From Nannocystis pusilla (lineage in GTDB: Bacteria; Myxococcota_A; Polyangia; Nannocystales; Nannocystaceae), in NCBI RefSeq assembly GCF_020073745.1, contig NZ_JAIRAU010000047.1, positions 285,990 to 349,989 of the forward strand: a stretch of 64,000 nucleotides of DNA, given 5' to 3'. Below are positions 53,406 through 59,187 of the stretch, piece after piece. The notes beneath the pieces are model-generated. The model was not told the DNA's origin and searched no databases. It saw only the letters and a list, made by a program, of their open reading frames with translations. The position numbers and the translations under genes are program-made. The first letter of the stretch is position 1. Each line of letters begins with the position of its first letter.

Positions 53406-55142
53406 TCACATCGGCTGGACGCCGCAGTCGTCGACCTCGCTGGGGATGCAGCCCTCGCAGTCCCAGCGGAAGTTGTCGATCAGCGCCGCGGTCGACAGGT
53501 ACTGGTCGGACATGTCGGCGAGGAAGAAGCCGACCGTGATCTCGGCGCCCGGCTGCACGCCGCCCTTGGCGGTGAACCAGTCGGAGCACGCGTGGGTCTC
53601 GAAGCCCGTGCCGGCCAGCTGCGGCTCGTTGTAGGTGTAGCCCTGCTGGATGAAGTACGGGTCGAGCGCCGTGATGGTGATCGGCAGGCCCTTGGTCGGG
53701 TCGTTCGGGTCGGGGATGAAGGTGACGTTGCCGCTGTACGGGTCGACCGGCGGGTTGGCGTTCGGGTTGTCGGGCGTCGGGTCGACCTGGTAGGCGATCA
53801 GCAGGTCGTTGTACGACGAGTCGACCCAATTGGGCCACTCGGCCGAGCAGAACGCGAACTCGAAGGTGTAGCCGAAGGTCCCGGCCGGCACGACGGTCTT
53901 GAAGCTGAAGTAGATGCGGTCGTTGCCGTCGGCGTCCGTCATCTCCCACTGCGCCTGGATGGTGTCGGAGCAGTCGTTGTCGCCGGCCCCGTTGTCGCAG
54001 TTCTTGAAGGGCGTGCCGCCGGCGCCGTTGTTGCTGCCGTTGACGGCCTTGAACGGCAGGGGCAGCGGCATCTCGTCGGGGTTGCCGTTGTCGGTGGTGC
54101 CCTGGTTGTTGGGCGCCTCGATCACGACGCCCTCGGCGTTCGGCGGCGCGATCTCGCCGTTCGAGATGATGAGGAAGCTGCTGCCCTCGCGCGGGCTGTA
54201 GAGGCGCTGCGGCGGCGTGTTCGCGTCGTTGTCGTGATCGTACGTGTAGGTGCCGTAGCCCTTCGTCACCTGCCAGCTGACGTCGACGGGGTTCGAGTGC
54301 TCGAAGCTGGTCGTGACGATCGAGTTGGCGAGCGTATCGTTGCAGATGCCGATCGCCTTCAGCATGTTGTTCTTGTCGGCCTTGTTGCTGATCACGTCGG
54401 GCGCGTCGTCGCACACGATGTAGTTGGCCGGGGCCTGGCAATTGGCCGGGAAGAACGAGGTGCAGTTGTTGAGGCAGAAGTCGCCGGGGCCGCCGTCGAC
54501 CTGGTTGCCGTCGTCGCACTCCTCGCCGCGCTCCTTCTTGCCGTTGCCGCACATCGGCGGCGTGAGCGAGCAGTCGGGCTCGCAGCCGTCGTTCGGCACG
54601 TCGTTGCCGTCGTCGCACGCCTCGGGCTCCTCGACGTTGGCGTTGCCGCACTCCTGCGTCGGCGTCGCGGTGAGGCAGTCGGCGCTGCACTCGTCGCCGT
54701 CGTCGGTGTTGCCGTCGTCGCACGCCTCGCCCTGCTCGACGTTCATGTTGCCGCACACCGCCGTGACGTTGCAGGTCGGCTCGCAGCCGTCCCCGGGCAC
54801 GTCGTTGCCGTCGTCGCACTCCTCGGTGCCCTCTTGCACGCCGTTGCCGCACTCCGGCGTCACGGCGGTCTCGCCCTCCGTGTCCGTCGCGGCCGTCGTG
54901 CCGTCGGTCGTGCCCTGGGTCTCGCCCATGCTCATGCCCGTCGTCGGCGTCGTCGTCGTCGGTCCGGTCTCGCTGTCCGAGTTGCCGCCGGGCGTCGGGT
55001 TGTTGGTGGTGATGTTCGTCGAGGCGTCACCTTCGGTCTGGTTGACGCCGGTGACGTTGTCGACGCTGTCGCCGCAAGCGACCAGCGCGGTGGCACAAAG
55101 GCCGGTGGAGAGCAGTCGTACGATCGGAGTCTTCATGGTCAT
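53406..55142 (-). CDS. myxobacterial Cys-rich repeat (TIGR02232-type) lipoprotein, paralog 1
   Basis: About 578 aa from ATG 55142 (MTMKTPIVRLLSTGLCATALVACG). Five 'CGNG..E.GE.CDDGN.V.GDGCE..C' repeats, then a conserved C-terminal domain of about 330 aa. Confidence 0.7.
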   Translation of the reverse strand: MTMKTPIVRLLSTGLCATALVACGDSVDNVTGVNQTEGDASTNITTNNPTPGGNSDSETGPTTTTPTTGMSMGETQGTTDGTTAATDTEGETAVTPECGNGVQEGTEECDDGNDVPGDGCEPTCNVTAVCGNMNVEQGEACDDGNTDDGDECSADCLTATPTQECGNANVEEPEACDDGNDVPNDGCEPDCSLTPPMCGNGKKERGEECDDGNQVDGGPGDFCLNNCTSFFPANCQAPANYIVCDDAPDVISNKADKNNMLKAIGICNDTLANSIVTTSFEHSNPVDVSWQVTKGYGTYTYDHDNDANTPPQRLYSPREGSSFLIISNGEIAPPNAEGVVIEAPNNQGTTDNGNPDEMPLPLPFKAVNGSNNGAGGTPFKNCDNGAGDNDCSDTIQAQWEMTDADGNDRIYFSFKTVVPAGTFGYTFEFAFCSAEWPNWVDSSYNDLLIAYQVDPTPDNPNANPPVDPYSGNVTFIPDPNDPTKGLPITITALDPYFIQQGYTYNEPQLAGTGFETHACSDWFTAKGGVQPGAEITVGFFLADMSDQYLSTAALIDNFRWDCEGCIPSEVDDCGVQPM

Positions 55143-55340
55143 GGTCCTCGGGTCTAAGATTCGCGGGCCGCCCACGCACGCATGGGCGAACCAGCGGAGT
55201 CGACGTAGCGTTTCGGATCGCGAGCGATCGATCAAGCGTGCAAGTCCGCGACGCGCGTCGTCGTGCCAACGAATTTCACCCGCGAAAACACCGACGCGGG
55301 CCGCCCCGGCCGGAGCGACCCGCGCGTCATGCCACATCAC

Positions 55341-57086: not shown

Positions 57087-57453
57087 GGTCGTGTCCTGTA
57101 TGCGAAGCATGTGGGCCGTCCTCGAATGCATGGCGGTCCCGCCTTGATTCCTCATGATTCATGAGTGATCAAGGCCGGTGCCTCGCGCAGCGGTCCGCAG
57201 GCCTCATTGGTGAATCTGCAGCCTCGACCGCGCGAGACCGTCGTTCCGGCGCAGGAAGCACGCGATTCGTCGTCGCTGCCGATGGTGATCCACCGCAAGC
57301 TGTCGAGCTCGCTGGAAGACCACGGGTAGACGTCACATTTGTTCGACTCGCGCGATTCGACGCAACATCACACCATCGATTCCGCCCGCTCGAGACGCGA
57401 CGAGGCGCGCACGTCGCCGTGCGCGCCGCGTCACTCGTACCTCGAGCCGTCGA

Positions 57454-59187
57454 TCACATCGGCTGGACGCCGCAGTCGTCGACCTCGCTCGGGACGCAAC
57501 CCTCGCAGTCCCAGCGGAAGTTGTCGAGCAGCGCCACCGTCGCGAGGATGTTGTCCTGCATGTCGGCGAGGAAGAAGCCGATCGTCACCTGGGCGCCGGG
57601 CTGCACGCCGCCCTTGGCGGTGAACCAGTCGGAGCAGGCGTGCTCCTCGAAGCCCGTGCCCTGCAGCTGCGGCTCGGCGTAGGTGTAGCCGGGGCCGAGG
57701 TAGTACGGGTGGAGCGCCGTGATCGTCAGCGGCAAACCGCTCGCCGGGTTGTTCGGGTCGGGGATGAAGGTGACGTTGCCGCTGTACGGATCGACCGGCG
57801 GGTCCGCGTTCGGATTGTCGGGCGTCGGATCGACCTGGTAGGCGATCAACATGTCGTTGAACGCGGTGTTGACGAAGCTCGGCCACTCCGCCGAGCAGAA
57901 CACGAAGTCGAAGCTGTACCCGTAGGTCCCCTGCGGCACCGTGGTCTTGAACGTGAAGTAGATGCGGTCGTTCGGGTTGCCCTGACCCAGCATCCACTGC
58001 GCCTGCAGCGTGTCGGAGCAGTCCCTGTCGCCGTTCGGGACGCCGTTGTCACAACCGATGAACGGCGTGCCGCCGGCGCCGTTGTTGCTGCCGAACTGGA
58101 CCTTGAACGGAGGCGGCAGCGCGTTGTCGTCGGAGTTGCTGTTCTCGCCGTTGCCGACCTGCGAATTGACGCCGTGGATGACGACGCCCTGGCCGTTCGG
58201 CGCGTTGATCGTACCGCTCGACAGCATGAGGAAGGCGCCGCCCTCGCGCGGGCTGTAGAGCAGCTGCGGCGGCGTGTTCGCGTCGTTGTCGTGATCGTAC
58301 GTGTACGAGCCGAAGCCCTTGGCCACCTGCCAGGTGTTGGGCTGGGCCGCCGGGTCGAACACGAAGTCGGTCACCTGGATCGAGTTGTTCGGCTGATCGT
58401 TGCAGATGCCGATCGCCTTGAGCGCGTTGGTCTTGTCGTTCTTGTCGCTCAGGTTGATGTCCTGGTCGCAGTTGATGTAGTTGGCCGGCGCCTGGCACTG
58501 CGGCGGGAAGTACGTGGTGCAGTTGTTGAGGCAGTAGTCGTCGGGCCCGCCGTCGACCATGTTGCCGTCGTCGCACTCCTCGCCCTGCTCCTTGGTGCCG
58601 TTGCCGCACACCGCCGGCGTGAAGCTGCAATCGGGCTCGCAGCCGTCGTTCGGCTCCAAGTTGCCGTCGTCGCACGCCTCCGGCGCCTGGACCGCGCCGT
58701 CGCCACACACCTGCGTCGGCGTGGCCATGGTGCAGTCCGCGCTGCACTCGTCGCCGTCCTCGGTGTTGCCGTCGTCGCACGCCTCGCCGGCCTCGACGGT
58801 CATGTTGCCGCACACCGCCGACGCCACGCAGCCCGGCTCACAACCGTCGCCCGGGACGTCGTTGCCGTCGTCACACTCCTCGGCGCCCTCCTGCACGCCG
58901 TTGCCGCACTCCGGCGCCCCCTCGGTCACGCCCTGCGTGCCGTCCGAGGCCGTCGTCCCCGCCCCGGTCGTGGCCTGCGTGTCGCTCATGCCCATGCCGG
59001 TGGTCGGATGGTCGACGGTCGTCCCCGCCTCGCCCTCCGACCCAGGCCCGCCGGGCGTGGCGGTCACGCTCGAGCCCTCGGTATTGCCTTCCGAGGCCCC
59101 GGTGAGCTGACCGCCGTCGTCTCCGCAAGCGGTGAGAGAGGCAGCGCAGAACCCTGCAGTGAGGAGGCGAATGATCGGTCGAGTCAT
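57454..59187 (-). CDS. myxobacterial Cys-rich repeat lipoprotein, paralog 3
   Basis: About 577 aa from ATG 59187 (MTRPIIRLLTAGFCAASLTACG). Same architecture as paralogs 1 and 2. Confidence 0.7.
   Translation of the reverse strand: MTRPIIRLLTAGFCAASLTACGDDGGQLTGASEGNTEGSSVTATPGGPGSEGEAGTTVDHPTTGMGMSDTQATTGAGTTASDGTQGVTEGAPECGNGVQEGAEECDDGNDVPGDGCEPGCVASAVCGNMTVEAGEACDDGNTEDGDECSADCTMATPTQVCGDGAVQAPEACDDGNLEPNDGCEPDCSFTPAVCGNGTKEQGEECDDGNMVDGGPDDYCLNNCTTYFPPQCQAPANYINCDQDINLSDKNDKTNALKAIGICNDQPNNSIQVTDFVFDPAAQPNTWQVAKGFGSYTYDHDNDANTPPQLLYSPREGGAFLMLSSGTINAPNGQGVVIHGVNSQVGNGENSNSDDNALPPPFKVQFGSNNGAGGTPFIGCDNGVPNGDRDCSDTLQAQWMLGQGNPNDRIYFTFKTTVPQGTYGYSFDFVFCSAEWPSFVNTAFNDMLIAYQVDPTPDNPNADPPVDPYSGNVTFIPDPNNPASGLPLTITALHPYYLGPGYTYAEPQLQGTGFEEHACSDWFTAKGGVQPGAQVTIGFFLADMQDNILATVALLDNFRWDCEGCVPSEVDDCGVQPM

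Follow-up and report, generated by a model that had tools for sequence, protein, structure and literature searches.

A stretch of 64,000 nucleotides from Nannocystis pusilla (contig NZ_JAIRAU010000047.1), analyzed whole and referred to here as the window, contains three tandem minus-strand genes that fill positions 53406-59187 and are transcribed in the order C, B, A (Table 1). Each encodes a protein of four parts: a signal peptide that closes in a lipobox, a low-complexity linker, a segment of cysteine-rich repeats, and a C-terminal domain, here called the head, that is assigned to the choice-of-anchor L family. An original prediction, made by a model from the DNA alone, had described three tandem paralogs at these positions, and the array is confirmed with its strand and exact coordinates. 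The proteins are 74% (A-B), 68% (A-C), and 73% (B-C) identical, and the intergenic gaps measure 198 and 367 bp. Start codons were chosen to fit homologs and a Shine-Dalgarno-like purine run upstream. The window has about 72% G+C, and other long open reading frames (ORFs) overlap the three genes on both strands, resembling the shadow ORFs usual in high-G+C DNA; the frames of A, B, and C are taken as the genes because homologs match only those frames (shadow frames were not searched).

The lipobox cysteine is residue 23 in A (LVAC), 22 in B (LAAC), and 21 in C (LTAC); all three fit the pattern [LVI][ASTVI][GAS]C at the close of the signal peptide, as expected from the lipobox first noted in each gene, and the cysteine is invariant across 46 full-length homologs, whose consensus is LAACGDDG. 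The linker that follows consists of 72-76 residues and is rich in Thr, Gly, Ser, Asp, Glu, and Ala. It is predicted to be disordered: in the full-length AlphaFold model of B, residues 1-94 have a predicted local distance difference test (pLDDT) score below 50, and the repeats score about 70-78. Between linker and head lies a 137-aa (amino acid) segment of four repeats with the pattern CGNG..E.GE.CDDGN...GDGC...C, which matches TIGR02232 at 89.5 (A), 94.9 (B), and 98.8 (C) bits (cut-off 20.8) and PF13948 (DUF4215) at 43-53 bits in all three proteins (cut-off 27). The TIGR02232 family named in the original prediction therefore stands, at 89-99 bits, while its count of five repeats does not; there are four stretches matched by the hidden Markov model (HMM) in each protein and four CDDGN cores in the alignment.

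The head comprises 344-347 residues, not the 330 first estimated, from CQAPANY to the last residue of the protein (...DDCG(V/I)QPM), and has ten cysteines. The conserved motif string by which it was first recognized is present in the three copies, with small deviations in C and one in A (TWQV, GSYTYD, ALIDNF). The domain had been described as not obviously any known family; however, all three heads score above the curated cut-off of 27 bits for the NCBIfam model NF038133, choice_anch_L (A 30.8, B 32.9, and C 28.1 bits), in a match spanning head residues ~145-320, and copy B is 100% identical to an NCBI entry named 'choice-of-anchor L domain-containing protein [Nannocystis pusilla]'. Despite the marginal scores, the family assignment is solid because of three further results: phmmer with the head against 1.84 billion cluster representatives finds 717 relatives (50%-identity clusters) at E ≤ 1e-3, with E down to 1e-12; distant phmmer matches that were tested score 96 (P0263), 60 (P0144), and 53 bits (P0245) with NF038133; and several close homologs have the precomputed label PF26766, Pfam's newer Choice_anch_L family. 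Close homologs are named at NCBI either 'choice-of-anchor L domain-containing protein' or 'DUF4215 domain-containing protein'. By these sequence comparisons the head is a divergent member of choice-of-anchor L (NF038133 / PF26766). A scan of the head with a local copy of Pfam-A gave no match.

Choice-of-anchor L is a named family without assigned function or solved structure, so the shared domain is as uncharacterized functionally as first described, and it matches no well-characterized Pfam family with an assigned function. We take the family to have been named for members that carry cell-surface C-terminal sorting or anchor signals. The C-termini of A, B, and C have no hydrophobic or basic tag, and models for PEP-CTERM, MYXO-CTERM, LPXTG, and type IX secretion (T9SS) are unmatched at E ≤ 1; a C-terminal sorting signal is a contextual feature of the family that the NF038133 HMM does not require.

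An AlphaFold2 model of the copy B head, built with an 80-sequence alignment, predicts a single compact, mostly beta domain with high confidence (mean pLDDT 95.6; predicted template-modelling score, pTM, 0.93), which answers the earlier suggestion that the C-terminal domain be modelled. An insertion at about residues 94-173 is long and poorly structured in the model, yet highly conserved. The best match among solved structures is the carbohydrate-binding module (CBM)-like third domain of Vibrio cholerae VesC (PDB 6BQM); other structural matches are CBM61, MAM, and reelin, all of them non-catalytic modules. The VesC domain (residues 381-511) is described as a CBM-like beta-sandwich of concave shape, most closely related to MAM, reelin, and CBM29 (PMC7771236). 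The modelled head superposes on known MAM/CBM-type sandwich modules, and its predicted fold class is a MAM/CBM-type beta-sandwich (jelly-roll) without a close solved relative. The similarity to VesC stays at the level of fold because profile searches of PDB sequences gave nothing meaningful. A search of viral folds (BFVD) gave weak generic matches only, to tail-fibre, CBM-like, or adhesin-type sandwiches.

Conservation was computed over 80 head sequences, down to ~27% identity. Invariant residues are C33, D158, and W290; those conserved at ≥90% are C1, C10, D11, C148, C159, S160, D176, E203, P205, D214, G239, N240, T280, D311, D314, D324, W328, and C330. Conservation peaks in the loop GSNNGAGGTPF..CD..DCSD (C148-C159) and along the terminal strands F.LADM.D....ALLDNFRW. 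The consensus of distant members has neither C200 nor C287 (AFxSxEYP and HGxTGW), and this joint loss suggests that the two are paired. Asp is frequent in the conserved set and His, Arg, Lys, and Tyr are missing from it, a composition that would fit metal-assisted binding better than catalysis; the C148-C159 loop is a candidate acidic, disulfide-closed metal-binding loop. A likeness between its CDG..DCSD portion and the Ca2+ cage of low-density lipoprotein (LDL)-receptor class A modules was considered and dropped, as the spacing varies among the three copies and there is no Pfam match.

The array is old. At a locus flanked by a comEA-like gene, N. punicea and N. exedens each have three copies and N. 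radixulma, N. sp. RBIL2, and N. bainbridge each have four; in N. pusilla Na p29 a fourth copy, apparently frameshifted, accompanies three others. In a neighbour-joining tree of repeats plus head there are three clades, each holding most species: position-1 copies group with C, position-2 copies with B, and position-3/4 copies with A, gene A being closest to N. radixulma copy 4. Because these are three orthologous clades across six other genomes, A, B, and C predate the divergence of these Nannocystis species, and the recent duplication proposed in the original prediction is not borne out; only the duplications from three to four copies are lineage-specific. Between the window and N. radixulma orthologs, synonymous divergence (dS) of the head is 0.07-0.11 and omega 0.18-0.46, which indicates purifying selection of moderate strength; copy 2 is 93% identical between the two. 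The fourth copy of N. pusilla Na p29 (L004, 11376-13138) matches as two pieces that lie in different frames and meet near residue 292, an apparent frameshift that marks either a pseudogene or an assembly error.

The contrast between a divergent linker and a conserved domain, which the original prediction had noted and attributed to linker drift, is real: among A, B, and C, amino acid identity is 48-53% in the linker, 78-80% in the repeats, and 70-78% in the head. It extends to synonymous sites. dS is 0.63-0.81 in signal plus linker, 0.26-0.34 in the repeats, and 0.27-0.35 in the head, although gappy linker alignments can inflate dS and the strong bias in third-position G+C (GC3) compresses it everywhere. 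With linker dS two to three times that of repeats and head, protein-level constraint alone does not explain linker divergence, and the figures point to gene conversion of repeats and head in addition to purifying selection. The clearest sign comes from N. exedens DSM 71 (L005), where copy 1 groups with copy 3 in the tree: for these copies (5112-6875 and 9248-11005), the repeats have dS 0.01 and the head 0.06, as against 0.68 in signal plus linker, a clear signature of a gene-conversion tract that covers repeats and head only and ends at the linker boundary. Copies 3 and 4 of N. bainbridge have a milder version of the same pattern (0.08 and 0.13 vs 0.54). We read these patterns as those of old paralogs in which the structured part has probably undergone partial concerted evolution while the low-complexity tether drifted freely.

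The long form of the head (~345 residues, with a DNFRWxCxGC tail) occurs in Nannocystis, Enhygromyxa, Plesiocystis, and metagenome-assembled genomes (MAGs) of Nannocystaceae/Polyangia; shorter lipoproteins (~400 aa) with the same head are also found in Myxococcota MAGs. A genome scan seeded with a 29-sequence alignment finds no fewer than eight copies at five or more loci in N. radixulma and no fewer than six copies at four or more loci in N. punicea. Among the Met-starting family sequences that were examined, 165 of 243 have an N-terminus that resembles a lipobox under a loose pattern. The head is nearly always the C-terminal end of the protein and in relatives follows other modules: a region with a weak subtilase/mycosin-like match, metal-binding MopE motifs, Lcl_C, and TIG. 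Such varied fusion partners are the behaviour expected of a portable accessory binding module. A cluster look-up of ten distant members returned metagenomic proteins without names only.

Table 1. Features of the lipoprotein array and its immediate flanks (positions in the window; head, choice-of-anchor-L domain)
Feature	Position	Strand	Remarks
Convergent repeat protein	49116-53243	+	1375 aa; Pro-rich N-terminal region, then ≥21 short repeats
Gene A (array position 3)	53406-55142	-	578 aa; ORF and start codon, family matches
Gene A head	53409-54440	-	
Gene A four TIGR02232 repeats	54441-54851	-	
Gene A linker	54852-55076	-	
Gene A signal peptide with lipobox	55077-55142	-	LVAC
Terminator-like hairpin	55294-55325	-	14 pairs, 11 G-C, then T-rich tail; directly after gene B stop
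Gene B (array position 2)	55341-57086	-	581 aa; ORF and start codon, family matches
Gene B head	55344-56381	-	
Gene B four TIGR02232 repeats	56382-56792	-	
Gene B linker	56793-57023	-	
Gene B signal peptide with lipobox	57024-57086	-	LAAC
Gene C (array position 1)	57454-59187	-	577 aa; ORF and start codon, family matches
Gene C head	57457-58497	-	
Gene C four TIGR02232 repeats	58498-58908	-	
Gene C linker	58909-59127	-	Thr/Gly-rich
Gene C signal peptide with lipobox	59128-59187	-	LTAC
comEA-like helix-hairpin-helix gene	59504-60031	-	immediately upstream of array

A consensus scan found 11 terminator-like sites in the region, compared with 3.3 +/- 2.1 in shuffles; the stem after gene B is by far the longest, and the scan reported none like it behind gene C or gene A. 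The hairpin after B suggests that gene A may be transcribed separately from gene B. On its upstream side the array is followed by the comEA-like gene, aspartate kinase, and pdxJ, and on its downstream side it faces the convergent 1375-aa repeat protein. Synteny extends to the N. radixulma locus, which runs on into yceD-rpmF-plsX-fabD-fabG-acpP-fabF. Dispersed paralogs (L073, L074) have no conserved neighbour, and no partner gene was found.

Even Nannocystis MAGs that are more distant (L017, L022, L024) keep the comEA-like gene next to one or two of the lipoprotein genes; a functional link is not evident. The repeats of the 1375-aa protein center on a hydrophobic P-L-F-[WYF] motif, often spaced 17-20 or ~35-55 residues apart, and neither Pfam nor NCBIfam matches the protein. 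Its sequence identity across six other Nannocystis genomes is 92-98%, so that it is far more conserved than the comEA-like gene (74-95%) or the lipoproteins; in a more distant Nannocystis MAG (L024), no copy lies within 7 kb of the comEA-plus-lipoprotein locus. The minus-strand ORFs for aspartate kinase (60043-61716) and PdxJ (61767-63194) are overlong, as is typical of mechanically called ORFs in high-G+C DNA: the matched domains begin at residues 127 and 235, and the called genes in N. radixulma encode 431 and 244 aa, so the true starts of both lie well downstream of the first in-frame start codon.

The reading favored here, and held to be moderately probable, is that A, B, and C are paralogous lipoproteins of a Nannocystaceae-expanded choice-of-anchor L subfamily, anchored by lipid and presenting a head that binds glycan or another macromolecule in a metal-dependent (probably Ca2+-dependent) manner and is not an enzyme. 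After export, the signal peptide would be cleaved at the lipobox and Cys21-23 lipidated. Lipoproteins are retained in the inner membrane by Asp at position +2 under the E. coli rule, and Lys is reported for M. xanthus; because the +2 residue here is Gly, neither Asp nor Lys, the proteins would not be kept in the inner membrane and would be sorted to the outer membrane, possibly to its surface. The disordered tether of ~75 residues and the four disulfide-bonded TIGR02232 repeats would form a spacer or stalk, which would hold the compact 345-residue, ten-cysteine beta-sandwich at the distal, extreme C-terminus. The head may then bind a glycan or other extracellular macromolecule through the acidic disulfide-bridged loop together with the conserved D311, D314, and D324 of the last strands, most likely with the help of a metal, and each of the three old paralogs probably has a ligand specificity of its own. 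The carbohydrate-binding or adhesion role raised in the original prediction is accordingly the one favored by the predicted concave MAM/CBM-like sandwich, in which fold class and architecture are the evidence.

Several results pull the other way. NF038133 scores are marginal, exceeding the cut-off by only 1-6 bits, and the match spans profile positions 63-215 of 219. Foldseek against PDB returned nothing at E<1e-3, the top match being the MAM domain of PTPRK at 3e-3. Sequence relatives of the head in PDB are none: a profile of Nannocystaceae heads gave chance low-complexity matches only, and a profile of distant members gave zero matches at E ≤ 10. Residues that vary among the paralogs are not significantly enriched in loops relative to strands (p = 0.30) and so give no evidence of a diversified binding surface. 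No paper on any family member turned up in the library searched for 'choice-of-anchor L'.

One alternative is that the proteins face the periplasm from the outer membrane and have a structural or envelope-assembly role, the head binding a periplasmic partner such as peptidoglycan or an envelope protein. Most Gram-negative lipoproteins do face the periplasm, the locus is conserved across the genus, and it is set among housekeeping genes, with pdxJ, aspartate kinase, and comEA to one side and yceD, rpmF, plsX, and fabD/G/acpP/fabF to the other. Still, we regard such a role as unlikely: a disordered tether plus a 137-aa disulfide-rich stalk would be longer than expected for a periplasmic partner; the family is presumably named for members with cell-surface sorting signals; and three to four copies, one apparent pseudogene, and many dispersed paralogs per genome are atypical of core envelope machinery. 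A jelly-roll is also a fold of enzymes, and the head could be a polysaccharide lyase (PL) or glycoside hydrolase (GH) held at the envelope, where it would break down polymers of prey or matrix. This is quite unlikely given that the best structural matches (VesC domain 3, CBM61, MAM, and reelin) are non-catalytic, that no catalytic model of Pfam or NCBIfam, GH and PL included, matches, that no GH16-type ExDxxE motif was seen by eye, and that the invariant columns lack conserved His, Arg, Tyr, and Lys; in relatives, moreover, the head stands C-terminal to other modules, one region of which is weakly subtilase-like, in the manner of an accessory domain.

Two myxobacterial systems offer further alternatives. 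Receptors for cell-cell or kin recognition that work like Myxococcus TraA in inverted topology, with an N-terminal lipid anchor and a C-terminal head, would account for the presence of the same three functional parts in reverse order and for multiple paralogs whose variation clusters in head residues ~8-21, 35-57, 91-128, 165-176, and 205-213. TraA has a PA14-like head, Cys-rich repeats proposed as a rigid stalk, and a MYXO-CTERM tag proposed for cell-surface sorting and attachment (PMC3325183). In the Nannocystis proteins, however, PA14, TIGR04201, and MYXO-CTERM are unmatched; no traB-like (OmpA-domain) partner lies beside the array in the annotated syntenic locus or among the scanned window neighbours; and heads are conserved between species, with the omega values and copy 2 identity given above, and are not hyper-polymorphic like the TraA variable domain. 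We therefore hold it very unlikely that they act as such receptors, and membership in TraA itself is rejected on these missing matches and on neighbours that are instead the comEA-like gene and the convergent 1375-aa protein. SitA proteins are polymorphic lipoprotein toxins with a variable C-terminal toxin domain, followed by an immunity gene. Delivery of A, B, and C between cells by outer-membrane exchange as toxins of this type would suit their N-terminal lipobox, myxobacterial origin, and multi-copy family, and is so improbable as to be nearly negligible: the C-terminal domain is the conserved part and not the polymorphic one, its predicted fold is that of a CBM/MAM-like sandwich, toxin and nuclease domains are unmatched, and the intergenic gaps leave little room for immunity genes (short ORFs there were not examined). 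SitA-type identity is rejected because the C-terminal domain is conserved and no toxin family matches.

The value of the array lies in the size of the family it gives access to: at least 717 clusters at 50% identity match the Nannocystis head, and the Nannocystaceae subfamily, confidently modelled and with a short list of invariant residues, is a tractable entry point to the ligands of the family. Existing family names already cover these proteins in the catalogues; undescribed are the lipobox-anchored, extended Nannocystaceae form and its conserved array. The locus is otherwise an ordinary array of surface-protein paralogs and illustrates how old tandem paralogs are kept similar by gene conversion. 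A bolder extension, decidedly unlikely on present evidence, is that the three paralogs are inverted TraA-like receptors, with lipid anchor, Cys-rich stalk, and lectin head, that recognize kin cells, prey envelopes, or the cell's own matrix, their paralog-specific ligands kept since before the genus diversified and at times reshuffled by gene conversion; if true, this would give choice-of-anchor L its first function.

Among known systems, choice-of-anchor L proteins share with the head the motifs LSTG, F.F.S.E(W/Y)P, ND..., GTGFE, and D..D....LLDNFRW. The Nannocystaceae form differs in its length (~345 aa vs a model of 219 positions), to which an N-terminal extension of ~80 residues and the long insertion contribute, in the Cys-rich tail CxGCxPxExDxCG that closes the protein, and in an anchor that is an N-terminal lipobox and not a C-terminal sorting signal. 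As for VesC domain 3, MAM, CBM29, and CBM61, the head has no detectable sequence relation to any PDB chain, family profiles included, and only about one third of its 346 residues superposes on the VesC, MAM, or CBM sandwiches; VesC itself is a protease with a GlyGly-CTERM anchor, whereas the Nannocystis proteins have no catalytic module. TIGR02232/DUF4215 repeat proteins are matched well above cut-offs in the four characteristic repeats of each protein, but the repeats here form just a short segment, and that family too is without assigned function. Myxococcus xanthus TraA differs in having a PA14-like head instead of choice-of-anchor L, TIGR04201 instead of TIGR02232 repeats, a C-terminal MYXO-CTERM instead of an N-terminal lipobox, so that the order of parts is inverted, and a TraB partner. 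As an analogy and not a membership, TraA is nevertheless the closest functional counterpart in myxobacteria, for it likewise combines a lectin-like beta-sandwich head, a stalk of Cys-rich tandem repeats, and a lipid anchor (PMC3325183).

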